Shown here one piece after another: positions 1-10,264 of a DNA stretch of 10,264 nucleotides (positions are counted from its first letter, which is position 1; each line of letters begins with the position of its first letter). A program made the position numbers and the translations under genes. The notes below the pieces were generated by a model. That model searched no databases and was not told the origin of the DNA. It saw nothing but the letters and a program-made list of their open reading frames with translations. The stretch lies in the IMG/VR virus record IMGVR_UViG_2534681701_000009, one strand, 5' to 3'. Origin of the DNA: a virus. Taxonomy: Duplodnaviria; Heunggongvirae; Uroviricota; Caudoviricetes.

Positions 1-1254
1 ATGCTGGAACAAATGGGCATTGCCGCGAAGCAAGCCTCGTATAAATTAGCGCAACTCTCCAGCCGCGAAAAAAATCGCGTGCTGGAAAAAATCGCCGATG
101 AACTGGAAGCACAAAGCGAAATCATCCTCAACGCTAACGCCCAGGATGTTGCTGACGCGCGAGCCAATGGCCTTAGCGAAGCGATGCTTGACCGTCTGGC
201 ACTGACGCCCGCACGGCTGAAAGGCATTGCCGACGATGTACGTCAGGTGTGCAACCTCGCCGATCCGGTGGGGCAGGTAATCGATGGCGGCGTACTGGAC
301 AGCGGCCTGCGTCTTGAGCGTCGTCGCGTACCGCTGGGGGTTATTGGCGTGATTTATGAAGCGCGCCCGAACGTGACGGTTGATGTCGCTTCGCTGTGCC
401 TGAAAACCGGTAATGCGGTGATCCTGCGCGGTGGCAAAGAAACGTGTCGCACTAACGCTGCAACGGTGGCGGTGATTCAGGACGCCCTGAAATCCTGCGG
501 CTTACCGGCGGGTGCCGTGCAGGCGATTGATAATCCTGACCGTGCGCTGGTCAGTGAAATGCTGCGTATGGATAAATACATCGACATGCTGATCCCGCGT
601 GGTGGCGCTGGTTTGCATAAACTGTGCCGTGAACAGTCGACAATCCCGGTGATCACAGGTGGTATAGGCGTATGCCATATTTACGTTGATGAAAGTGTAG
701 AGATCGCTGAAGCATTAAAAGTGATCGTCAACGCGAAAACTCAGCGTCCGAGCACATGTAATACGGTTGAAACGTTGCTGGTGAATAAAAACATCGCCGA
801 TAGCTTCCTGCCCGCATTAAGCAAACAAATGGCGGAAAGCGGCGTGACATTACACGCAGATGCAGCTGCACTGGCGCAGTTGCAGGCAGGCCCTGCGAAG
901 GTGGTTGCTGTTAAAGCCGAAGAGTATGACGATGAGTTTCTGTCATTAGATTTGAACGTCAAAATCGTCAGCGATCTTGACGATGCCATCGCCCATATTC
1001 GTGAACACGGCACACAACACTCCGATGCGATCCTGACCCGCGATATGCGCAACGCCCAGCGTTTTGTTAACGAAGTGGATTCGTCCGCTGTTTACGTTAA
1101 CGCCTCTACGCGTTTTACCGACGGCGGCCAGTTTGGTCTGGGTGCGGAAGTGGCGGTAAGCACACAAAAACTCCACGCGCGTGGCCCAATGGGGCTGGAA
1201 GCACTGACCACTTACAAGTGGATCGGCATTGGTGATTACACCATTCGTGCGTAA
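1..1254 (+). CDS. proA: gamma-glutamyl phosphate reductase (glutamate-5-semialdehyde dehydrogenase), complete, 417 aa
   Basis: Full-length ORF starting at window base 1 and ending in TAA; the translation matches the E. coli ProA sequence as I recall it; proA sits immediately upstream of thrW in E. coli. Confidence 0.95.
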
Positions 1255-1368
1255 ATAAAACCGGGTGATGCAAAAGTAGCCATTTGATTCACAAGGCCAT
1301 TGACGCATCGCCCGGTTAGTTTTAACCTTGTCCACCGTGATTCACGTTCGTGAACATGTCCTTTCAGG

Positions 1369-1444
1369 GCCGATATAGCTCAGTTGGTAGAGCAGCGCAT
1401 TCGTAATGCGAAGGTCGTAGGTTCGACTCCTATTATCGGCACCA
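1369..1444 (+). tRNA. thrW: tRNA-Thr (anticodon CGU), 76 nt with encoded CCA
   Basis: GCCGATATAGCTCAGTTGGTAGAGCAGCGCATTCGTAATGCGAAGGTCGTAGGTTCGACTCCTATTATCGGCACCA: cloverleaf-compatible acceptor/T-arm pairing, GTTCGA T-loop, anticodon loop TTCGTAA giving anticodon CGT; position after proA fits thrW. Confidence 0.9.
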
Positions 1445-1461
1445 TTCAAACATCTCCCCAA

Positions 1462-1482
1462 GTCTACTAAAGTCTTTCAAAA
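1462..1482. repeat. 21-bp direct repeat copy 1 (GTCTACTAAAGTCTTTCAAAA), candidate integrase arm-type site in attL
   Basis: Near-identical copy at 1525..1545 (2 mismatches), both between the tRNA 3' end and the integrase start. Confidence 0.45.
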
Positions 1483-1524
1483 CCCCTTATAATCCGCGTA
1501 TTAAAGCCCCGCTCGTCTTTTGAC

Positions 1525-1545
1525 GTCTACTAAAGTCCCTCAAAA
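1525..1545. repeat. 21-bp direct repeat copy 2 (GTCTACTAAAGTCCCTCAAAA), candidate integrase arm-type site in attL
   Basis: Matches 1462..1482 at 19 of 21 positions; followed by tandem ATGGGGGTA at 1557..1565 and 1569..1577. Confidence 0.45.
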
Positions 1546-1609
1546 TCTACGGTCAGATGGGGGTACTTATGGGGGTATTTGCTGTTCGGTTTAGTGGAGG
1601 TACCCCCAA

Positions 1610-2824
1610 GTGAAACTCAATGCCCGTCAAATAGACACAGCCAAGCCAAAAGAGAAGGCTTACAAGCTGGCCGATGGTGGCGGTTTGTATCTCTTGGTAA
1701 AACCTAATGGAGGTAAATACTGGCGACTTAAATATCGTGTAGCTGGTAAAGAGAAGCTATTGGCACTAGGTGTTTATCCTGAGGTTACTCTAGCCGATGC
1801 TCGGGCAAAACGTGAAGATGCGAAAAGAGGTATCGCTGGTGGTATCGATCCGATGGAAGCGAAACGAGAGGAAAAGATTGCCCGGGAAACGCAGTTAAAC
1901 AACACCTTCAAAGATATTGCCATTGAGTGGCACAGCAGCAAATTAAAAAAATGGTCTGCTGGTTATGCTTCAGACATCCTCGAAGCCTTCAACAAAGATG
2001 TGTTCCCTTACATTGGCAAAAAAACCATCGCCGAAATCAAACCACTTGAACTTCTGAATGTGCTGCGTCGCATCGAGGGGCGCGGTGCTACAGAAAAAGC
2101 CAAAAAAGTGAGGCAGCGGTGCGGGGAAGTTTTCCGCTATGCAATAGTCACTGGTCGCGCAGAGTATAACCCTGCACCAGACCTTACTAGCGCGATGCAA
2201 GGCCATGAATCTAATCATTACCCTTTCCTTACAGCCAAAGAATTACCTGATTTTTTCAAGGCATTGTCCAGTTACTCAGGAAGCGCATTGGTTGTTATGG
2301 CGGCTCGTCTACTGATTATCACCGGCTTGCGGACTGGCGAACTACGTGGCGCATTATGGGATGAAATTGATTTCAACAAGGCTATCTGGGAGATACCCGC
2401 TTCACGTATGAAAATGCGGCGGACTCATATTGTGCCATTGTCTGAGCAGGCTCTTTCGCTTATTGGGAAGATTAGAGAAATAACAGGCAATTACCCTCTT
2501 ATGTTTCCCGGGCGCAATGATCCAAGGAAAACAATGAGCGAGGCCAGCATAAACCAAGTGTTTAAGCGCATTGGCTACGCTGGACGTGTAACTGGTCATG
2601 GGTTCCGGCACACTATGAGTACGATTTTGCATGAGCAGGGCTATAACACCGCGTGGATAGAAACGCAGCTCGCTCACGTTGATAAGAACTCAATTCGTGG
2701 CACATACAACCATGCGCAATATCTGGATGGAAGGCGGGAGATGCTTCAATGGTATGCCGACTATATGGATTCTCTCGAGCATGGCGGAAATGTGGTGCAT
2801 ATGGTGTTTGAAAAACACGCATGA
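1610..2824 (+). CDS. int: P4-family tyrosine recombinase / integrase, 404 aa, GTG start
   Basis: ORF directly downstream of the tRNA; GGAGG 9 nt upstream of GTG; N-terminus KPKEKAYKLADGGGLYLLVKPNGGKYWRLKYR is typical of P4-type integrases; C-terminal HGFRHT ... RGTYNHAQY carries the recombinase His/Arg/Tyr catalytic motifs. Confidence 0.9.
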   Translation: MKLNARQIDTAKPKEKAYKLADGGGLYLLVKPNGGKYWRLKYRVAGKEKLLALGVYPEVTLADARAKREDAKRGIAGGIDPMEAKREEKIARETQLNNTFKDIAIEWHSSKLKKWSAGYASDILEAFNKDVFPYIGKKTIAEIKPLELLNVLRRIEGRGATEKAKKVRQRCGEVFRYAIVTGRAEYNPAPDLTSAMQGHESNHYPFLTAKELPDFFKALSSYSGSALVVMAARLLIITGLRTGELRGALWDEIDFNKAIWEIPASRMKMRRTHIVPLSEQALSLIGKIREITGNYPLMFPGRNDPRKTMSEASINQVFKRIGYAGRVTGHGFRHTMSTILHEQGYNTAWIETQLAHVDKNSIRGTYNHAQYLDGRREMLQWYADYMDSLEHGGNVVHMVFEKHA

Positions 2825-2967
2825 AACAACTGGACAAGTATACAGAGGTTTACTAAAGTATAGGGGAGTAGATTGATAAAAACTCACAGAGGATTGCTAT
2901 TTAACAGTTAGCCCTGGAGAAGGGCAATCGCTCTTTTATAAACGAAGGTGTATTGAGCCTTCTACGT

Positions 2968-3030
2968 CGCTGACAAAGCGGAATGTTCTTTAACAGGCTT
3001 TGGCGCTGACAAAGCGCAATTGTTCTTTAA
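2968..3030. repeat. two direct repeats of ~26 bp (CGCTGACAAAGCG-G/CAAT-TGTTCTTTAA) in the int-alpA intergenic region
   Basis: Copies at 2968..2993 and 3004..3030; each begins with a small CGCT...AGCG inverted motif; candidate regulator binding sites. Confidence 0.4.
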
Positions 3031-3134
3031 AACTACTGGATGTCACGCCTAATAGCGTGATCCTGCCGAAATGCAGGGTAGCTCTACCCTTGTGGAGCAA
3101 ACAAACCAAAACAATCTGACTATCTTTTATAAAA

Positions 3135-3163
3135 GACCGCAATATGTTTTTCATATTGTGGTC
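3135..3163. promoter_or_regulatory. 12-bp imperfect palindrome with 5-T spacer (GACCGCAATATG TTTTT CATATTGTGGTC), candidate operator or hairpin upstream of alpA
   Basis: 11 of 12 positions are self-complementary; lies ~90 bp upstream of the alpA ATG. Confidence 0.35.
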
Positions 3164-3268
3164 TTTGGCGTATTCGACATTTGACGCAAATAAAACTCTC
3201 GCCATTCGTTGCAGGAGGGAGTTATTGCGTCATTAGTACAGGATATTAATAAATGGCTAATTACAATT

Positions 3269-3277
3269 CATTAATTC
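3269..3277. repeat. IS1 target-site duplication, left copy (CATTAATTC)
   Basis: Identical 9-mer directly flanks the other IS1 end at 4046..4054; 9 bp is the usual IS1 duplication length. Confidence 0.9.
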
Positions 3278-3292
3278 GGTAATGACTCTAAC

Positions 3293-3796
3293 TTATTGAT
3301 AGTGTTTTATGTTCAGATAATGCCCGATGACTTTGTCATGCAGCTCCACCGATTTTGAGAACGACAGCGACTTCCGTCCCAGCCGTGCCAGGTGCTGCCT
3401 CAGATTCAGGTTATGCCGCTCAATTCGCTGCGTATATCGCTTGCTGATTACGTGCAGCTTTCCCTTCAGGCGGGATTCATACAGCGGCCAGCCATCCGTC
3501 ATCCATATCACCACGTCAAAGGGTGACAGCAGGCTCATAAGACGCCCCAGCGTCGCCATAGTGCGTTCACCGAATACGTGCGCAACAACCGTCTTCCGGA
3601 GCCTGTCATACGCGTAAAACAGCCAGCGCTGGCGCGATTTAGCCCCGACATAGCCCCACTGTTCGTCCATTTCCGCGCAGACGATGACGTCACTGCCCGG
3701 CTGTATGCGCGAGGTTACCGACTGCGGCCTGAGTTTTTTAAGTGACGTAAAATCGTGTTGAGGCCAACGCCCATAATGCGGGCTGTTGCCCGGCAT
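3293..3796 (-). CDS. insB: IS1 InsB reading frame (expressed as InsAB' fusion via -1 frameshift), 167 aa as listed
   Basis: Translation ...[96 protein letters not shown]... matches IS1 InsB; overlaps insA as in IS1. Confidence 0.9.
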
Positions 3797-3990
3797 CCAA
3801 CGCCATTCATGGCCATATCAATGATTTTCTGGTGCGTACCGGGTTGAGAAGCAGTGTAAGTGAACTGCAGTTGCCATGTTTTACGGCAGTGAGAGCAGAG
3901 ATAGCGCTGATGTCCGGCAGTGCTTTTGCCGTTACGCACCACCCCGTCAGTAGCTGAACAGGAGGGACAGCTGATAGAAACAGAAGCCAC
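3715..3990 (-). CDS. insA: IS1 InsA (transposition regulator / N-terminal part of InsAB' transposase), 91 aa
   Basis: Translation [43 protein letters not shown]... is the canonical IS1 InsA with its zinc-finger motif. Confidence 0.93.
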
Positions 3991-4045
3991 TGGAGCACCT
4001 CAAAAACACCATCATACACTAAATCAGTAAGTTGGCAGCATCACC

Positions 4046-4054
4046 CATTAATTC
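4046..4054. repeat. IS1 target-site duplication, right copy (CATTAATTC)
   Basis: Identical to 3269..3277. Confidence 0.9.
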
Positions 4055-4232
4055 GTCTCTCTGAAGTTCAAAGGCGAACTGGTTATAGCAAAGCATGGAT
4101 TTATCGTCTTATTAGTCAGGGGAGGTTCCCTAAACAGGTAAAAATTGGAAGTCGGGCAATTGCTTTTGTTGAGTCTGAAATAGATGAATGGATTGAGAAG
4201 TGTATATTAGAATCTAGAGACGAGGTGGCCTG

Positions 4233-4664
4233 ATGGAAAAGAAAAACCGCCCATTACAGGCGGCTAATTCAGATATTCGTGTATCTGATGTTACGCCCCT
4301 TACAAAATCCCTTCAAGCACCAAAGCGCACACCGAAAAAGCATCGTGCCAGAGTCTATATGCTGCGTACTGGTATAGAGGGATGGACAGAAAATGACATT
4401 CTTCGCTACTGCCGTCTGTCTTCTGGTCGTAACTATGCAACAGAGTTAGAACGCCAGCTTGGAATCACTCTGGAGCGTATCGACGAAAAGAATCCTGATG
4501 GTATCGGAACACACCTTCGCTACCGTTTCTCCTGCCGTGGTGATGTTCTGAAAGTGATCACTCATATTAACCATCTTGCGAACATAAATGATCACAACGG
4601 ACTTTCTCAGCAGGAAATTGCCGACATTCTGAAACTCTACCCGGACGCGTTTAACGCCGCCTAA
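4233..4664 (+). CDS. hypothetical protein, 143 aa, basic N-terminus; function unknown
   Basis: ATG overlaps the alpA stop (TGATG); ORF with protein-like composition; no family recognised by eye. Confidence 0.65.
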   Translation: MEKKNRPLQAANSDIRVSDVTPLTKSLQAPKRTPKKHRARVYMLRTGIEGWTENDILRYCRLSSGRNYATELERQLGITLERIDEKNPDGIGTHLRYRFSCRGDVLKVITHINHLANINDHNGLSQQEIADILKLYPDAFNAA

Positions 4665-4676
4665 CGGAGACTGAAA

Positions 4677-5510
4677 ATGAACATCGAAAAAAGCAGATTA
4701 ATTTCTGAGGCCGCCCCTCATCTGAACGCCTCTCTGGGCACAATTAACGGTAATGAATTTGCCGCAATTGTCCCGGTTATTCCTGGTCATATCGGTGGGC
4801 GTGAAACCAATATTGTTAGCGCAAAAGCGTTACACAAAGCGTTGGGCGTGGGAAAAGACTTCTCTACATGGATCACTGATCGCATCTCTGAATATGACTT
4901 CACCATTGGGCACGATTACTCAGTCCATAAAACAATTTCCCCAAATTTGGGGAAAAGCCCGAATGGCGCGGCTTACAGCAAGATAAAGCACTCTGGCAGA
5001 CCCGGCAAAGACTATCTGTTAAGTGTCGGAATGGCGAAAGAACTGGCAATGATCGAACGCAATGATCAGGGTCGCGCTATCCGCCGTTATTTCATCCAGT
5101 GCGAGGAAGAATTACAGCGTAGCGTGCCTGAAATCGCCGCCCGCTATCGTCGCCAGCTAAAAGCCCGTATCAGTGCCGCAAACAACTTTAAGCCAATGTG
5201 CGATGCGCTGAATATGGCCCGTGCCGAGATGGGTAAAACGACGCAGCAACACCACTACACAAACGAGAGCAATATGATTTCTCGTATCGTTCTTGGTGGG
5301 CTAACTGCTAAGCAGTGGGCGCGGATAAATGGCTATTCTGGCGAACCTCGCGACCATATGAACGCAGAACAGCTTGAGCACCTCTCATATCTCGAAAGCA
5401 CCAATATCACGTTAATTGATATGGGCATGGAATATGAGCAGCGCAAAGGAGAACTCACCCGCCTGTCGCAACGCTGGCTCGCTAAGCGTCTGGAGGCGGT
5501 CCATGTTTAA
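4677..5510 (+). CDS. phage antirepressor-like protein (AntA/Rha-type N-terminal region), 277 aa
   Basis: GGAG 8 nt upstream of ATG; motifs KDFSTWITDRISEYDF and LSVGMAKELAMIERNDQGRAIRRYFIQCEEEL resemble AntA/Rha-family antirepressor domains from memory. Confidence 0.7.
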   Translation: MNIEKSRLISEAAPHLNASLGTINGNEFAAIVPVIPGHIGGRETNIVSAKALHKALGVGKDFSTWITDRISEYDFTIGHDYSVHKTISPNLGKSPNGAAYSKIKHSGRPGKDYLLSVGMAKELAMIERNDQGRAIRRYFIQCEEELQRSVPEIAARYRRQLKARISAANNFKPMCDALNMARAEMGKTTQQHHYTNESNMISRIVLGGLTAKQWARINGYSGEPRDHMNAEQLEHLSYLESTNITLIDMGMEYEQRKGELTRLSQRWLAKRLEAVHV

Positions 5511-5685
5511 GCCGACAGGAACACCACAACCTCAAAAACGCTACAAAGATGCCCACGGAGCACTCGTTACTGTCGAAAGCGTGTCTCACAACCGAGTGAC
5601 GTTTTATCGCGACGGGTATCAATCGCCATGCGTACAACCGCTGGCGCGTTTCATGAAGGAGTTCGCGGAGGTTAACAAATGCTAA
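5503..5685 (+). CDS. small hypothetical protein, 60 aa (MFKPTGTPQ...)
   Basis: ATG embedded in the upstream stop (ATGTTTAA) suggests translational coupling; I prefer this start to the longer 5416 start in the ORF track, which overlaps the upstream gene by 95 nt. Confidence 0.5.
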   Translation: MFKPTGTPQPQKRYKDAHGALVTVESVSHNRVTFYRDGYQSPCVQPLARFMKEFAEVNKC

Positions 5686-6746
5686 CCGTCCAGAAGAAGA
5701 CATTTTCACTGGCTGGTATGTCGCCAAAATCCAGTAATATGACGGCAAAGTCAGGCATTAATACAGCAGATACAAGCAAAGTTTATCATTTGCTGGTGGT
5801 CGGAACGGATGCCTTAACCATATCAGAAATCTCGGGCGATGATATTAGCATTGAGAAGGTCAGCGGCTGCGCCAGAAAATTTCTGGTCGTAGATGATGTC
5901 TTCCGCTCGTGTAGTGACTCCACAAAAACATTCGTCCACGCGCGTGACGTTAACGAAATGAGCGCGATGTACTGTGCATCTGGTGCTTCCAATAGCGAGT
6001 TTTCGGAGTCCATAAAAAAGAGCTTGCCGTTATGCGGCAACACGGTTTATGGTTATAAGGCACCTCATAAAACGGGTGCCGGGATTGGCGTCCTGGTAAA
6101 TCGAATGGCGACATATGACGCGCCGAGCGTCTTTTTTTATGTCGTAGGTCTGACTCACCCATTTTTTGGGCGTTGGTGTATAATCCAGCGCCTTTGTCAA
6201 TCAATGGTGGCTCAGGCAGGGGCTTCTTCGGAAGCGCCGGTATCCATTCGAGCCGGTTACGCCAACCCTGTCTGGGCTACCACCAGCGAAATTGGCGTTT
6301 CCGGTGGTAGCGTTACATGCTATCGAATGGAGGCTGCCACATGCTGGCTACTACCCCTACCCAAAAACCGCAATTTATCTGGATTATCGCCGCAGTTCGC
6401 CGCGATTGCCCGACAATTACCGCCAAAATTCATCATATTGCTGCCGAGTCTGAACGCGATGCTCGCCGTTCTCTGGTGCGCGATCACGTCTGCTTTTTTG
6501 CTGGTCGTATCCGCATGGAGGTGGCTCATGATTAAAACCTACGATGTGCATATGGATCCCCTCGAACGCACAAGCCAGATCATCACACTGACAGAAGTGA
6601 TTAACGACATTCTGGTGAGCAACTCTCCCTCACGAGACGAAAGACTGAAGGCGTTACTCGCGATATTGGATCTCGCCGTTCGTGACGTTCATTTCCTGCT
6701 GGAAGGTGGCGAAATGCCAGGAAAAACGGGGGCAACCAATGAATAA
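5679..6746 (+). CDS. uncertain: 355-codon open frame; plausibly a real coupled gene at its 5' end (5679 to ~6116) but no in-frame stop before 6746
   Basis: ATG overlaps the upstream stop (ATGCTAA) with GAGG 7 nt upstream; frame stays open through a terminator-like hairpin, a promoter-like TATAAT, the structured region and the out-of-frame Icd-like ORF. Probably not one protein. Confidence 0.25.
6117..6138 (+). terminator. candidate rho-independent terminator (GACGC-GCCGA-GCGTC followed by T7)
   Basis: 5-bp GC-rich stem, 5-nt loop, immediately followed by TTTTTTT at 6132..6138; lies at the end of the alpA-to-orf60 coupled module. Confidence 0.4.
6150..6184 (+). promoter_or_regulatory. candidate sigma70 promoter, perfect -10 TATAAT at 6179..6184 with TG two bases upstream and an A/T-rich tract before it
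   Basis: GGTGTATAAT; no canonical -35 at 17-bp spacing, so assignment rests on the -10 and context (just downstream of the terminator, upstream of the structured region and icd-like gene). Confidence 0.4.
6199..6335 (+). ncRNA. candidate C4/CI-type antisense immunity RNA with flanking target sites (approximate bounds)
   Basis: 9-bp stem GCTACCACC (6276..6284) / GGTGGTAGC (6303..6311); TCCATTCGA (6243..6251) is complementary to TCGAATGGA (6323..6331), which overlaps the GGAGG ribosome-binding site of the icd-like ORF; a related ATCAATGGTGG motif sits upstream at 6199..6210. Confidence 0.4.
6341..6535 (+). CDS. Icd-like (host cell division inhibitor-like) small protein, 64 aa
   Basis: GGAGG 7 nt upstream of ATG; [22 protein letters not shown]... 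resembles Icd-like proteins of P1/P4-type immunity regions from memory; stop overlaps the next ATG. Confidence 0.55.
   Translation: MLATTPTQKPQFIWIIAAVRRDCPTITAKIHHIAAESERDARRSLVRDHVCFFAGRIRMEVAHD
6528..6746 (+). CDS. small hypothetical protein, 72 aa
   Basis: ATG overlaps the icd-like stop; first of a chain of coupled ORFs. Confidence 0.5.
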   Translation: MIKTYDVHMDPLERTSQIITLTEVINDILVSNSPSRDERLKALLAILDLAVRDVHFLLEGGEMPGKTGATNE

Positions 6747-6933
6747 CTCAATTAATACCCCTCGCCTTACGTCCGCACTTCAATTAATCGAGCAAGCAGC
6801 GGCTGTCCCGGTTGCTGTCAGTCTTTCGGCTGAAGAAATGGACGCTGCTGATGTCGTGGATGCGATTAAAGCGTGCTCATCTTTGGTTAACGATGCCCGT
6901 GACGAGCTGGTAATTCTTGGGGGTGAAAAATGA
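6739..6933 (+). CDS. small hypothetical protein, 64 aa ([10 protein letters not shown]...)
   Basis: Start embedded in upstream stop as ATGAATAA; preferred over the 6682 start in the ORF track. Confidence 0.5.
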   Translation: MNNSINTPRLTSALQLIEQAAAVPVAVSLSAEEMDAADVVDAIKACSSLVNDARDELVILGGEK

Positions 6934-7193
6934 ATATCAACTTAATTTATCGTCATCCGTGTGAGCTGGAAATTGAATCATTGCTGAGCCGTGAAGAGCC
7001 ATATCCAGACACATTCACTCTTGCAGATCGCACGACTGAACGGCTTACCAGAGCGCGCACAGGTCTGGTTCATGTGATGAATGAGATTCTTCCATCGGTG
7101 GGAGGGGAACAGGCGACAGTAATCACTAGCTGGCTACAAAAAGTTACCTCTCTGATAGATATCAGTTTAATCGATGCGGAGAGTGCGAAATGA
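6930..7193 (+). CDS. small hypothetical protein, 87 aa
   Basis: ATGA start/stop overlap with upstream ORF. Confidence 0.55.
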   Translation: MNINLIYRHPCELEIESLLSREEPYPDTFTLADRTTERLTRARTGLVHVMNEILPSVGGEQATVITSWLQKVTSLIDISLIDAESAK

Positions 7194-7411
7194 CCAACAT
7201 CCAGCTCATTGAAGCACAATGTCGCATCGAACAGGTTCAGACTGTTTTAGGGTTCTGGCTTGAAGGGGCCAGCCCCAGCAACAGAGACAAGTTAATGATT
7301 GGCGCGGTTATGTCACTGCTCAATGGCGTACCAGAAGCTATTCAGGAAGCGGACGAATTGTTGGGCAAATATGAGTTACAGAATCATTCAGGCGAGGCGA
7401 AACATGAATAA
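7190..7411 (+). CDS. small hypothetical protein, 73 aa
   Basis: ATGA start/stop overlap with upstream ORF. Confidence 0.55.
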   Translation: MTNIQLIEAQCRIEQVQTVLGFWLEGASPSNRDKLMIGAVMSLLNGVPEAIQEADELLGKYELQNHSGEAKHE

Positions 7412-8006
7412 TTTCTTAACTTTCCATGCAGAAGCAACGCCTGACGGCGTAAACATCATGTACCGCAGCAACGATGGCATGACAGAACGCGTTGAGACCG
7501 TCTCATATATTGATGCCGTAAATCGTCTGGATGCCGGGGATTATGACGATAAACCAGATGAAGGTATGTCAATACATCTCGCTATTGCCGATGGCGGCAA
7601 CCAGGGATATTTCGATTACACATCACAGCATAACGTCATTATGTGGAGATGGCTGATCGCAACAGTATTCATGCTGGAAATGAGAGAGGAAAACGGTACT
7701 GTCAGCATCATTGATGATACTGGCAATCCTTCCGAAGTGGCTGTTTATTCCAACGGCATCGTCGCCATGCCGCTGTATCCAGTAGCAGAGCGCCTCGCTA
7801 TGGCAAACAACATTGAGGGCGCGATGATAGAACGTTTTGGCATCGAGTCTGGCACAGAACGCGCCATCATTTTCTACAGAGCCATGATGGATGTGGAACA
7901 AGGAGCACTGACTCCATTTGGTCGTGAAACGCTTGCTGAACTTCACAACAGCTTTATAGCTGAACTGAATGAAAACGGCATGCCAGCGGAACCAGTGACG
8001 CACTGA
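7404..8006 (+). CDS. hypothetical protein, 200 aa (MNNFLTFHAEATPDG...)
   Basis: Start embedded in upstream stop as ATGAATAA, the same 8-nt junction as at 6739; preferred over the 7299 start, which would overlap the upstream ORF by 113 nt. Confidence 0.65.
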   Translation: MNNFLTFHAEATPDGVNIMYRSNDGMTERVETVSYIDAVNRLDAGDYDDKPDEGMSIHLAIADGGNQGYFDYTSQHNVIMWRWLIATVFMLEMREENGTVSIIDDTGNPSEVAVYSNGIVAMPLYPVAERLAMANNIEGAMIERFGIESGTERAIIFYRAMMDVEQGALTPFGRETLAELHNSFIAELNENGMPAEPVTH

Positions 8007-8016
8007 GGATGGAGCC

Positions 8017-8358
8017 ATGATTACTAAAAATTTCCGACTGAATGCGCTGGCAAATAAGTATGCGTCGGCACTGTATAACCACATTACCTCCACCAGCGGC
8101 GGGGACTATTTCATGGTTGATGCGGACGGCGAGGCCGTCCGTGTGGAAATCGTCAATGGAGTAAAAGGCGTTCGCAGCCTGATCGATAGCTACACACTGG
8201 CAGCCATGAAAGTGTTCTACCCGCAGTGGGAAACCGTGGGGATCGAGCTTCTTGAACGTTGCGTCACTAAGGACGGATTGACTGACGTCGGGCGTGAGAT
8301 ATGGCAAAGCATGGTTAATGACATGGGCGCAACTGTAGCGGGAGGTTCTCATGCGTGA
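8017..8358 (+). CDS. hypothetical protein, 113 aa
   Basis: GAGGATGGAG ribosome-binding site directly upstream of ATG; no family recognised. Confidence 0.65.
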   Translation: MITKNFRLNALANKYASALYNHITSTSGGDYFMVDADGEAVRVEIVNGVKGVRSLIDSYTLAAMKVFYPQWETVGIELLERCVTKDGLTDVGREIWQSMVNDMGATVAGGSHA

Positions 8359-8722
8359 AAATGCAGAAATGGCGCTTAGCTCCGCAATCGGAGAGCAGGT
8401 GGCAAAGATTGCTGGTGCTGTGTGGATTCATAACCTTCATTCTACTGGTGAAGAGAAAATGGTAATTCAGACGCCAGAGGGACGCACCATTACTACATCT
8501 CTGAAGCCGTCAGATGTTTGTGATCTGATTTGCGCATTCATGTACCCAGCAATGAGGACTGTCCACGGCGATAAGTGGAAACTTGCGACAACCGCTGAAT
8601 TTGATATGTGGCTAAACAATGATGGCATGCTGACTGATTACGGAATAACCAAGTGGCAGATGCTGGTTAGCCATATCGCAAACGCTATAGACCACGTGGG
8701 GTACGGTGATGCGAAACATTGA
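8351..8722 (+). CDS. hypothetical protein, 123 aa
   Basis: ATG overlaps upstream stop (ATGCGTGA); no family recognised. Confidence 0.65.
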   Translation: MRENAEMALSSAIGEQVAKIAGAVWIHNLHSTGEEKMVIQTPEGRTITTSLKPSDVCDLICAFMYPAMRTVHGDKWKLATTAEFDMWLNNDGMLTDYGITKWQMLVSHIANAIDHVGYGDAKH

Positions 8723-9336
8723 TCTTATCCGTCAGGTTATCAGTGCGTCTGAAAACAACTGGCCTCATGTGCTGGGCTGCCTGAACATAAATGTCCCTGA
8801 CTCTCCGCGCCGTCATGCTCCCTGCCCTGCATGTGGGGGCAAAGATCGATTCCGGTTCGATGACAACGGGCGCGGTAGCTTCATCTGTAATCAGTGCGGC
8901 GCTGGTGATGGGCTGGATTTAATTAAACGCGTAAATAACTGCGACACAACAGAGGCGGCGCTTCTTGCCGCTGATGTTCTGGGTATTGATTACCGGACAA
9001 CGGAAACACCAGAAGCCACCAGCCAGAAACGGGAACAACTGGAAACCGAGCGCCAGCGACGCGAACAGGAGCGCCTGAAAAGGGCAGAGAAGGACGAACA
9101 ACAAAGACGGGATACGTTTTCCCGTCAGTTTGATGACATGCGCAGAAAGGCTGTAAACGGCAAATCTGATTATCTGGTTGCGAAAGGGGTAGGTGATTTT
9201 ACATTCCCCGTGTTGCCCGATGGATCTCTGTTGCTGGCGCTGGTGGATAAATCCGGCGCAGTAACAGCAGCACAGACTATTACCTCACATGGTGAAAAAA
9301 GACTCCTGACAGGTTCAGCAAAGCGGGGGGCATATC
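8706..9336 (+). pseudogene. P4 alpha-type DNA primase, N-terminal ~210 codons only (zinc-binding domain and start of TOPRIM), truncated by IS186
   Basis: CPACGGKDRFRFDDNGRGSFICNQCGAGDGLDL is a primase zinc-ribbon motif; P4-type primase/helicases are ~700-800 aa, whereas this frame terminates a few codons inside IS186. Confidence 0.8.
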
Positions 9337-10264
9337 CATAAGCGCTAACTTAAGGGTTGTGGTATTACGCCTGATATGATTTAACGTGCCGATGAATTAC
9401 TCTCACGATAACTGGTCAGCAATTCTGGCCCATATTGGTAAGCCCGAAGAACTGGATACTTCGGCACGTAATGCCGGGGCTCTAACCCGCCGCCGCGAAA
9501 TTCGTGATGCTGCAACTCTGCTACGTCTGGGGCTGGCTTACGGCCCCGGGGGGATGTCATTACGTGAAGTCACTGCATGGGCTCAGCTCCATGACGTTGC
9601 AACATTATCTGACGTGGCTCTCCTGAAGCGGCTGCGGAATGCCGCCGACTGGTTTGGCATACTTGCCGCACAAACACTTGCTGTACGCGCCGCAGTTACG
9701 GGTTGTACAAGCGGAAAGAGATTGCGTCTTGTCGATGGAACAGCAATCAGTGCGCCCGGGGGCGGCAGCGCTGAATGGCGACTACATATGGGATATGATC
9801 CTCATACCTGTCAGTTCACTGATTTTGAGCTAACCGACAGCAGAGACGCTGAACGGCTGGACCGATTTGCGCAAACGGCAGACGAGATACGCATTGCTGA
9901 CCGGGGATTCGGTTCGCGTCCCGAATGTATCCGCTCACTTGCTTTTGGAGAAGCTGATTATATCGTCCGGGTTCACTGGCGAGGATTGCGCTGGTTAACT
10001 GCAGAAGGAATGCGCTTTGACATGATGGGTTTTCTGCGCGGGCTGGATTGCGGTAAGAACGGTGAAACCACTGTAATGATAGGCAATTCAGGTAATAAAA
10101 AAGCCGGAGCTCCCTTTCCGGCACGTCTCATTGCCGTATCACTTCCTCCCGAAAAAGCATTAATCAGTAAAACCCGACTGCTCAGCGAGAATCGTCGAAA
10201 AGGACGAGTAGTTCAGGCGGAAACGCTGGAAGCAGCGGGCCATGTGCTATTGCTAACATCATTA
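9337..10264 (+). mobile_element. IS186 (IS4 family), left end and first 928 bp; continues beyond window
   Basis: Begins CATAAGCGCTAACTTAAGGGTTG (IS186 terminal repeat as I recall it), inserted next to a GGGGGG run; contains the IS186 transposase N-terminus. Confidence 0.85.
9392..10264 (+). CDS. insL: IS186 transposase, N-terminal 291 codons; partial, open to the window end (not in the ORF track because no stop is reached)
   Basis: Translation MNYSHDNWSAILAHIGKPEELDTSARNAGALTRRREIRDAATLLRLGLAYGPGG... matches IS186 transposase from memory; frame is open for exactly 291 codons to base 10264. Confidence 0.85.
   Translation, partial: MNYSHDNWSAILAHIGKPEELDTSARNAGALTRRREIRDAATLLRLGLAYGPGGMSLREVTAWAQLHDVATLSDVALLKRLRNAADWFGILAAQTLAVRAAVTGCTSGKRLRLVDGTAISAPGGGSAEWRLHMGYDPHTCQFTDFELTDSRDAERLDRFAQTADEIRIADRGFGSRPECIRSLAFGEADYIVRVHWRGLRWLTAEGMRFDMMGFLRGLDCGKNGETTVMIGNSGNKKAGAPFPARLIAVSLPPEKALISKTRLLSENRRKGRVVQAETLEAAGHVLLLTSL

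Follow-up and report, generated by a model that had tools for sequence, protein, structure and literature searches.

Seven small overlapping genes of an EcCIMP1-type island as probable distal members of an RNA-gated early operon

What are seven small open reading frames (ORFs), each starting in or just after the stop codon of its predecessor, doing between an icd-like gene and a primase gene? The question is raised by IMG/VR record IMGVR_UViG_2534681701_000009, a 10,264-nt stretch of Caudoviricetes DNA (the window, by which we mean the whole stretch that was analyzed). An earlier note on its letters had pointed to a chain of seven plus-strand ORFs at 6528-8722, and all seven, here called o1 to o7, are indeed present there between the Icd-like gene and the primase. 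The layout is the normal architecture of a known class of satellites, found here in a defunct copy: the window contains a phage-inducible chromosomal island (PICI) of the type of EcCIMP1, an island of Escherichia coli. Our answer, to which we give a probability of roughly 0.75, is that these ORFs form the distal part of a single long early operon of such an island, one that is translationally coupled and gated by an immunity RNA. Two modest new details emerge along the way, namely an orphan fold for o6 and o7 and a shifted Eta-like reading frame.

The junctions of the chain carry the first line of evidence. The icd-like gene overlaps o1 (6528-6746) by 8 nt (ATGATTAA), and o1 overlaps o2 (6739-6933) by another 8 nt (ATGAATAA). 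The 4-nt overlap ATGA joins o2 to o3 (6930-7193) and o3 to o4 (7190-7411), after which 8-nt overlaps return between o4 and o5 (7404-8006; ATGAATAA) and between o6 (8017-8358) and o7 (8351-8722; ATGCGTGA). The last ORF runs into the primase by 14 nt if that gene starts at ATG 8709, or by 17 nt if it starts at GTG 8706. Between o5 and o6 there is a 10-nt gap (TGAGGATGGAGCCATG) that has its own Shine-Dalgarno (SD)-like GGATGGAG run, and a purine-rich, SD-like run lies 5-12 nt before every start in the chain. A consensus scan of 6528-8722 found zero promoter- or terminator-like sites on the plus strand, and the only nearby plus-strand terminator (6117-6131) sits upstream of the chain, in the isrK-like leader RNA described below. 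The same overlapping style joins the genes further upstream, which are alpA, a gene for a 143-aa protein, antA, a DUF4222 gene and an ash-family ORF (the junctions from alpA to DUF4222 being TGATG, a 12-nt gap and ATGTTTAA), so that the seven ORFs make up the distal half of an array of 13 genes. Two minus-strand ORFs of 156 and 132 aa (7623-8093 and 7954-8352) overlap o5 and o6; they are probably shadows, because homolog families, RefSeq annotation and codon-position patterns all back the plus-strand genes.

Operons of phages and satellites often contain overlaps of 4 and 8 nt, and since every junction has its own SD-like run, independent initiation at each gene is conceivable. The chain could thus reflect routine compaction of the genome and play no part in regulation, and the recurrence of ATGAATAA could be a scar of duplication or recombination, a combination that we consider very unlikely. 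The overlap geometry persists while gene content changes, in-frame hybrids keep continuity to the primase, and in the related P4 and isrK systems translation of an upstream ORF is required for downstream expression. As for the scar, ATGAATAA does occur exactly twice in the window, as the earlier note had observed, but the recurrence is within chance (0.47 occurrences expected; 17 of 200 shuffles give at least two) and unsurprising because four junctions share the type ATGNNTRR. The proteins that follow both begin with MNN, which is forced by ATGAATAA plus the next base and so is not independent evidence. Moreover, the flanks share little past the 8-mer, and other genera have a plain ATGA between o4 and o5.

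The persistence of the geometry is best seen across related elements. The o5 family was the search anchor and is hence present in every recovered locus. The search found 14 loci, in Kluyvera, Shimwellia, Scandinavium, Kosakonia, Enterobacter, Lonsdalea, Klebsiella and Atlantibacter, and further E. coli variants were added. Across more than 20 loci from about ten genera the interval from icd to the primase holds 2 to 8 ORFs with overlaps of 4 or 8 nt throughout, except for a gap of 7 to 16 nt that mostly falls directly after o5. The families keep a fixed order: icd, an optional o1 or other small ORF, an optional o2, o3, an optional o4 or member of a 66-aa family, o5 (sometimes with a paralog), then o6 and o7, both optional, and the primase. 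The division into conserved backbone and variable cargo that the earlier note envisaged thus holds for gene order, while membership varies: across genera, most loci have o3 and about half have o6; o1 and o7 are limited to the E. coli-type lineage, outside which o2 occurs in only one locus, L015 of Enterobacter adelaidei. Full-length homologs of o3, o4, o5 and o6 in other genera share 38-79% identity with the window's proteins. The sequence that precedes the ORF after icd (GGAGGTGGC...ATG) is identical whichever ORF follows.

Three independent in-frame deletion hybrids preserve the frame through to the primase. These are a 68-aa hybrid of two chain ORFs that joins an F11 N-terminus to the C-terminus of o3 (L119, 4201-4407), an o6 with an internal deletion (L013, 5747-5917), and the o5/o6 hybrid P0298; the 8-nt overlap into the primase is kept in two of the three. 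We interpret such hybrids as a sign of selection on translational continuity, beyond selection on the proteins themselves. Separately, locus L012 (CACSKA010000004.1), labeled Chryseobacterium sp., carries a typical enterobacterial island of this family, and an o5 homolog also appears in the record of Elizabethkingia phage EKP1 (hit H61); these two cases reflect either mislabeling or contamination, or a wider host range.

A candidate for the switch that gates the array lies directly before the chain. An isrK-like leader RNA occupies 6060..6137 on the plus strand (Rfam RF01394, 67.1 bits against a gathering score of 50) and ends in an intrinsic terminator at about 6117-6137, located on the same strand by a terminator scan. 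It is followed at 6200..6287, again on the plus strand, by an antisense immunity RNA of the C4/CI type, matched over its full length, 1-87 (Rfam RF01695, 79.5 bits against a gathering score of 45). Rfam finds the same pair in L001, L002 and P4. The seqB-like loop of the C4 RNA, TCCATTCGA (6243-6251, plus strand), has an 8-nt complement in the leader, the seqA-like site TCGAATGG (6101-6108, plus strand), and is 100% complementary over 9 nt to a seqC-like site, TCGAATGGA (6323-6331, plus strand), which overlaps the SD sequence of icd, GGAGG (6329-6333). For a pairing analysis we aligned the 310 nt before icd from 16 related elements and P4 and quantified duplexes in 12 loci (the window, L002, L004-L010, L012, L014 and P4). 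Loop, leader site and SD-proximal site change together, so that the 12 loci represent 11 specificity types, and the duplex of a loop with its own icd site spans 8-11 nt (mean 9.7) against a mean of 5.1 for non-cognate pairs. The arrangement of loop, leader site and icd SD sequence is the seqA/seqB/seqC scheme of P4, extended here to PICIs of many genera.

What pairing at the icd ribosome-binding site might do to genes farther along is suggested by base composition. The most C-rich, G-poor 80-nt stretch within 5600-9300 starts at 6340 and so coincides with the beginning of icd (6340-6420), which is what one would expect of a Rho entry site that becomes accessible in the absence of icd translation. 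By analogy with P4 and P1, repression here would combine a translational block with premature termination, and this stretch is the one feature of the window that points to it.

From these observations we infer a translational block, Rho polarity and an AlpA-driven bypass, and any function proposed for the proteins below is meant in the same conditional sense. The operon would comprise alpA, the gene for the 143-aa protein, antA, the DUF4222 gene, the ash/eta-like ORF with its embedded RNAs, icd, o1 to o7 and the primase gene. In the resident state, a short leader transcript would yield the stable C4/CI-type RNA, whose loop would pair with the leader site and with the site overlapping the icd ribosome-binding site. 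With icd left untranslated, its C-rich start would be exposed, Rho would terminate transcription, and nothing downstream would be made. Ribosomes flowing from icd, or from the eta-like ORF when an AlpA-dependent upstream promoter fires, would instead carry expression to the primase. Since each ORF starts in or just after the preceding stop, this flow would pass through all of the small genes, and the overlaps would let one RNA switch control the replication module as a whole. The small acidic proteins would then be accessory early proteins occupying the slot of epsilon, orf151 and orf106 in P4, with o5, o6 and o7 possibly forming a functionally linked set, because o6 and o7 are paralogs and o5-o6 fusions exist.

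Several points weigh against this interpretation. Overlapping genes are common in phage operons anyway. The block, the Rho dependence and the coupling are read from the nucleotide sequence together with precedents in P4, P1 and Gifsy-1. Given the 10-nt gap and separate SD sequence between o5 and o6, re-initiation there may be independent of upstream translation. The long ORF of the E. coli lineage is out of frame with icd, unlike its counterpart in P4, and the P4 model may therefore not transfer in detail. Locus L015 (4590-5579) has the full chain plus a tandem o5 paralog of 187 aa, and its upstream region holds only a divergent Icd-like gene (25% identity) and no recognizable C4 RNA; the chain can therefore exist under other control. 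Finally, the family, profile and fold searches gave no function for the chain proteins.

The icd-like gene lies at 6341..6535 on the plus strand and encodes a 64-aa Icd-like protein, a homolog of P4 Kil (NF033153, 71.3 bits against a curated cut-off of 25; 43% identity to P4 kil). Its start is most likely ATG 6341, the start preceded by the GGAGG at 6329-6333 and chosen by RefSeq in L018 and L102, and not 6317. The 355-aa Eta-like ORF, named 'ash family protein' in RefSeq (5679..6746, plus strand), overlaps the stop of the DUF4222 gene at its start (ATGCTAA), spans both RNA genes, passes through icd in a different frame and terminates at the stop codon of o1. Alignments of its N-terminal 248 aa in other genera show 32-40% identity. 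P4 and most other genera have the long upstream ORF in the frame of icd, giving a nested eta/kil pair. In the E. coli lineage and in the Klebsiella michiganensis locus L014 the SD-ATG spacer (GCTGCCAC-ATG; 6334-6340) is 1 nt shorter, which moves the long ORF into a frame other than that of icd, with its end at the stop codon of the small ORF that comes next. What RefSeq annotates is in some records the long ORF and in others icd. The long ORF is open in L001 and L021, and the 'pseudo' label given by the Prokaryotic Genome Annotation Pipeline (PGAP) rests on homology.

This geometry bears directly on the status of o1, an acidic 72-aa product encoded on the plus strand by the in-frame 3' end of the 355-aa ORF. 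Because of that shared frame, o1 might be no independent gene and merely the tail of the long ash/eta-like ORF, or else a fortuitous open frame. RefSeq mostly shows the long ORF alone or an empty interval at this position, and a search for diverged homologs returned only copies of the E. coli type at 96-100% identity, with none below 96%. The excess of variable sites at third codon positions is marginal (2/3/7 at first, second and third positions, P=0.066). Even so, we think dismissal of o1 unlikely to be correct. Its ATG falls exactly at the conserved junction after icd (GGAGGTGGC...ATG), the position of a gene start in all related elements; the frame is intact in 22 of 22 copies comprising 10 alleles and shares a start-stop overlap with o2; PGAP calls it as WP_001582517.1 in L018; and kil of P4 is likewise both nested and an independent gene. 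It may be that o1 is both an independent coupled gene and the tail of an Eta-like protein.

The remaining proteins give few clues of their own. All seven are acidic (isoelectric point (pI) 4.1-5.6), and the earlier note was right that the 200-, 113- and 123-aa proteins have no recognized signature: no Pfam, NCBIfam or PADLOC family scores above threshold for any member of the chain, and in PHROGs o4, o5 and o6 fall only in families of 'unknown function'. On the plus strand as are all the others, o2 encodes 64 aa (pI 4.1), is a hypothetical protein in RefSeq and has a 60% identical homolog in L015. About 10 loci from other genera encode homologs of o3 (87 aa) that are 55-59% identical and invariably sit early in the chain, and the product of o4 (73 aa; phrog_20558, E 2.9e-9) has homologs at 38-42% identity in other genera. 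With 200 aa and a net charge of -21, o5 is the largest; it belongs to phrog_1515 (E 1.4e-47) and has 550 database relatives, of which the 120 listed are all from Enterobacterales where a name is given. The product of o6 (113 aa; phrog_37628) has 130 relatives, and that of o7 (123 aa) has 21, which reach down to 52% identity with full length kept. Among E. coli alleles, o4 and o6 are under purifying selection, each with variable sites distributed 1/0/9 over the three codon positions (P=0.0004), and the corresponding distribution for o5 is 5/1/8. RefSeq attaches names such as 'ubiquinol-cytochrome C reductase', 'nicotinic acetylcholine receptor subunit beta' and '2-polyprenylphenol hydrolase' to small ORFs of such chains, apparently through propagated misannotation.

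Searches for distant relatives were no more revealing of function. Sequence searches of the PDB with o3, with o4 and with the o5 and o6/o7 profiles gave nothing meaningful, and PADLOC defense profiles matched the chain proteins only at chance level (E 0.004 or weaker). Weak matches of chain proteins to TY-Chap1, PTPS, CARF and PglZ were rejected as chance. An AlphaFold2 model of o6 shows four helices and a beta-hairpin with high scores (predicted local distance difference test (pLDDT) 93.3; predicted template modeling score (pTM) 0.86), and its comparison with the PDB and BFVD produced no structural match.

What the profiles do reveal is kinship within the chain. The pair o6 and o7 are distant tandem paralogs (BLASTP E 3e-4 over 97 residues; hhalign E 7.5e-5 over 91 columns; bridging sequences exist). 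An exhaustive profile search of 1.84 billion representatives returned only 63 relatives. Three of these combine an o6-like domain with another one: P0275 fuses it to an o5-like domain, a second protein joins it to an ORF6N (Bro-network) domain, and P0311 joins it to the zinc-ribbon N-terminus of a primase. That the C-terminal half of o5 is the same domain as o6 is suggestive only; the order of secondary-structure elements agrees, and hhalign gives E values of 0.014 and 0.0026 at probabilities of 3-12%. The AlphaFold2 model of o5, built from an 18-sequence alignment, reached a pLDDT of 49 and is unusable. More speculatively, and with a good deal of doubt, the C-terminal half of o5, o6 and o7 might constitute one undescribed superfamily of small domains with a fold absent from the PDB and BFVD, expanded in tandem in the satellite operon and fused elsewhere to Bro/ORF6N domains, whose members would act as effectors against helper or competing phages or as partners of Icd in a phage-sensing arrest switch. 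If so, the operon would be a dual-purpose unit for replication and defense under a single RNA.

Position suggests a different role for these proteins. In P4, orf106 lies directly upstream of alpha and its product, Cnr, limits replication by binding alpha, thereby providing copy control. By analogy, o6, o7 and perhaps o5 might be regulators or cofactors of the primase-helicase, which we regard as a tentative proposal that probably does not hold. When o6-type genes are present they adjoin the primase gene (or o7 in E. coli-type copies) with the same 8-nt overlap, even in the two-ORF chain of L119; their position matches that of orf106/DUF5375 in P4; P0311 unites the two kinds of domain in one protein; and the C-terminus of o7, VGYGDAKH, is invariant where it overlaps the primase start. 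That invariance may reflect only dual coding, however, and L002 and L021 have primases whose N-termini are 99-100% identical to that of the window and yet have neither o6 nor o7. The presence of o6 and o7 is also independent of whether the primase C-terminus is of the DUF927 or the DUF5906 type, and o6 shows no detectable homology to DUF5375 (hhalign probability 0.4%; Pfam).

Alternatively, the chain, the Icd-like protein and the primase may form mainly an abortive-infection or superinfection-exclusion module in which the small proteins detect a phage trigger, or pass it on, and so unleash Icd toxicity. A parallel is found in ECOR61, where a prophage-like locus places two small overlapping ORFs (about 61 and 63 aa) downstream of an Icd-like gene with an extended N-terminus and also carries a primase gene (bioRxiv 10.1101/2023.04.06.535777). 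Growth there is arrested on expression of the phage accessory gene orf24, transposon suppressors fall in the Icd-like gene and both small ORFs, and all six linked genes, the primase gene among them, are needed to reconstitute the effect (bioRxiv 10.1101/2023.04.06.535777). EcCIMP1 itself confers superinfection immunity against phage Kapi1 (PMC11773190), all seven chain proteins are acidic, and homologs of o5 at 30-37% identity lie in the early-left accessory regions of temperate phages such as phiP27 and Shiga toxin (Stx) phages, away from replication genes, which argues against a purely primase-linked role for o5. Nevertheless, the ECOR61 ORFs differ in length from o1 to o7, PADLOC gives no match, and a conserved order with tight coupling to the primase across genera fits a life-cycle operon. 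As a principal function we therefore find defense unlikely. It is compatible with the coupled, RNA-gated operon that we prefer, and not exclusive of it.

The operon resides in an element whose identity can be stated closely. Two window segments, 1254-3278 (98.9% identity) and 4046-9336, match EcCIMP1 of E. coli MP1 (NZ_CP139039) colinearly at 97-99% identity. The gene order is that of Gram-negative PICIs: int, an alpA interrupted by an insertion sequence (IS), the 143-aa gene, antA, DUF4222, ash, icd, the chain and the primase gene, all at tRNA-Thr. The six genes o2 to o7 correspond to six consecutive 'hypothetical protein' genes that precede the TOPRIM/DUF927 primase of EcCIMP1, and all are intact in the window. 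The region was found in 569 of 5426 complete E. coli genomes, 254 of which hold at least 80% of it. EcCIMP1 has been demonstrated by experiment to be a PICI integrated at tRNA-Thr between proA and yagU, which excises, circularizes and is transduced only with the temperate phage Kapi1, requires its own alpA for this, and gives its host added superinfection immunity against Kapi1 (PMC11773190).

The window opens with proA and tRNA-Thr(CGT), the latter at 1369..1444 on the plus strand (ARAGORN, Rfam) serving as integration site; the att core TCCTATTATC lies inside it at 1428-1437, with the sequence given in PMC11773190. A tyrosine integrase of 404 aa follows (1610..2824, plus strand), the ORF being the same gene that is annotated as integrase in the MP1 island. 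Colinearity with MP1 is then broken at 3279..4045 (minus strand) by an insertion close to the 5' end of alpA, at which about 10 nt are duplicated relative to MP1. The insertion lies only a few codons into alpA, leaving remnants at about 3252-3278 and 4046-4233; it carries InsA/InsB-like ORFs (3293-3990, minus strand), and we take it to be IS1. Next on the plus strand come the 143-aa protein (4233-4664, from the ORF list) and, identified by family profiles, an AntA/AntB antirepressor-family protein (4677-5510) and the DUF4222 protein (5503-5685).

Beyond the chain, only the N-terminal 209 aa of the primase remain, including its zinc ribbon (8709..9336, plus strand; PF08273, E 8.5e-16), compared with 783-918 aa for the intact primases of related elements, which have TOPRIM and DUF927 or DUF5906 domains. 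Similarity to intact copies ends at 9336 and the ORF stops at 9341, because an IS4-family element begins where the homology ends (9337..10264, plus strand; recognized by translation and by NF033592 at E 5e-12, which is under the family cut-off). Its transposase ORF (MNYSHDNWSAIL...) begins at 9392 and continues past the end of the window; the element is presumably IS186-like. With both alpA and the primase gene interrupted, this copy is a disabled remnant that is probably not mobilizable, and its chain is probably silent. The window thus reads as a decayed, disabled copy of the published island.

Intact relatives show what lies further downstream. Their late zones (L001, 14929-19587; L102, the MP1 island, 12598-17766) hold genes annotated as a DUF2824 protein, a 'phage DNA ejection protein' and a lytic transglycosylase domain protein. 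These resemble the ejection proteins of P22-like podophages, which would fit a podophage helper. A zone scheme of Integration, Bro, Replication and Late regions has been proposed for Gram-negative PICIs (PMC10111431), and the late zones of the intact relatives fit it. In L001, a 'reverse transcriptase family protein' gene (543-1502), between slmA and pyrE, adjoins the copy of the island at the yicC site; L002 is without that gene at the same position.

How, then, does this locus compare with systems already known? The nearest is P4, which keeps its helper-derepression gene epsilon in the slot between immunity RNA and primase, and a copy-control gene in the same slot. The minus strand of P4 (L003) reads isrK-like leader, CI (C4) RNA, kil, epsilon, orf151, orf106 and alpha, with overlaps of 8 nt at kil/epsilon and epsilon/orf151. 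The window matches this with its isrK-like RNA, C4 RNA, icd, o1 to o7 and an alpha-like primase N-terminus (32% identity to alpha), with the seqA/seqB/seqC arrangement of targets, and with small ORFs joined by 8-nt overlaps between kil and primase; the logic that links eta, kil and CI in P4 is the one outlined above, as far as it is summarized in PMC10111431. The chain does occupy the place of epsilon-orf151-orf106 in the P4 left operon, as the earlier note proposed. Its gene set is an uncharacterized, non-homologous counterpart of that block: BLAST, Pfam and hhalign detected no relation of o1 to o7 to epsilon, orf151 or orf106 (hhalign probabilities below 2%). P4 epsilon matches PF25738 at E 9e-51, and none of the seven does; P4 orf106 matches PF17345 (DUF5375) at E 3e-63, and members of the o5 family, including three with precomputed PF17345 marks, gave no match to it at E<=1. 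Kinship of o5 or o6 with orf106/DUF5375 is accordingly unsupported (hhalign probability 1.8% for o5 and 0.4% for o6). A scan of IMG/VR for orf106 relatives found only copies 93-100% identical, and therefore no orf106 profile could be built. Because none of the seven is detectably related to the small proteins of P4, the suggested role in helper or host interaction remains an analogy.

The earlier note's label of P4-like element fits only in part. The CI/C4 RNA with its seqA and seqC targets, the kil homolog and the alpha-type primase agree with it, and the absence of psu, delta, sid and epsilon does not. In the intact relatives L001, L002 and L102, psu, delta and sid are not annotated, and genes for DUF2824, DNA-ejection and lytic-transglycosylase proteins are found instead; the eta-like ORF of the E. 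coli lineage is out of frame with icd and ends in o1; and the helper of the EcCIMP1 type is Kapi1, not P2. The element is an EcCIMP1-type PICI and a relative of P4, and not P4-like in the strict sense.

The immI region of phages P1 and P7 (c4 RNA - icd - ant) shares the Rfam family of its antisense RNA, which is processed from the transcript that it regulates, an Icd protein as first translated gene product, and an AntA/AntB-family gene in the element. Biere, Citron and Schuster reportedly found in 1992 that c4 of P1 blocks icd translation and thereby causes termination before the coupled ant gene. In the window, by contrast, the RNA comes after the Ant-family gene, and what is coupled downstream is a set of seven small ORFs and a primase gene. 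The isrK-orf45-anrP region of Gifsy-1 in Salmonella likewise has an isrK-family leader RNA with its own terminator, and downstream expression there needs ribosomes to translate a small ORF that AUGA links to the following gene (PMC4825925); it differs in that its short RNA activates translation and in that no primase or long chain follows. The programmed-cell-death locus of ECOR61 also unites an Icd-like gene, small overlapping ORFs and a primase (bioRxiv 10.1101/2023.04.06.535777), its Icd-like gene bearing a long N-terminal extension in frame.

EcCIMP1 itself shares integration site, integrase and gene order with the window, from which it differs in the IS1 in alpA and the IS4-family element in the primase, the window's late region lying beyond its end. 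Small ORFs, RNAs and coupling were outside the study that described the island (PMC11773190). Where P4 carries epsilon, islands of the EcCIMP1 type in roughly a tenth of complete E. coli genomes carry a non-homologous set of genes, and o1 to o7 thus provide a short list of candidates for sensing or manipulation of the helper Kapi1 or for superinfection immunity.

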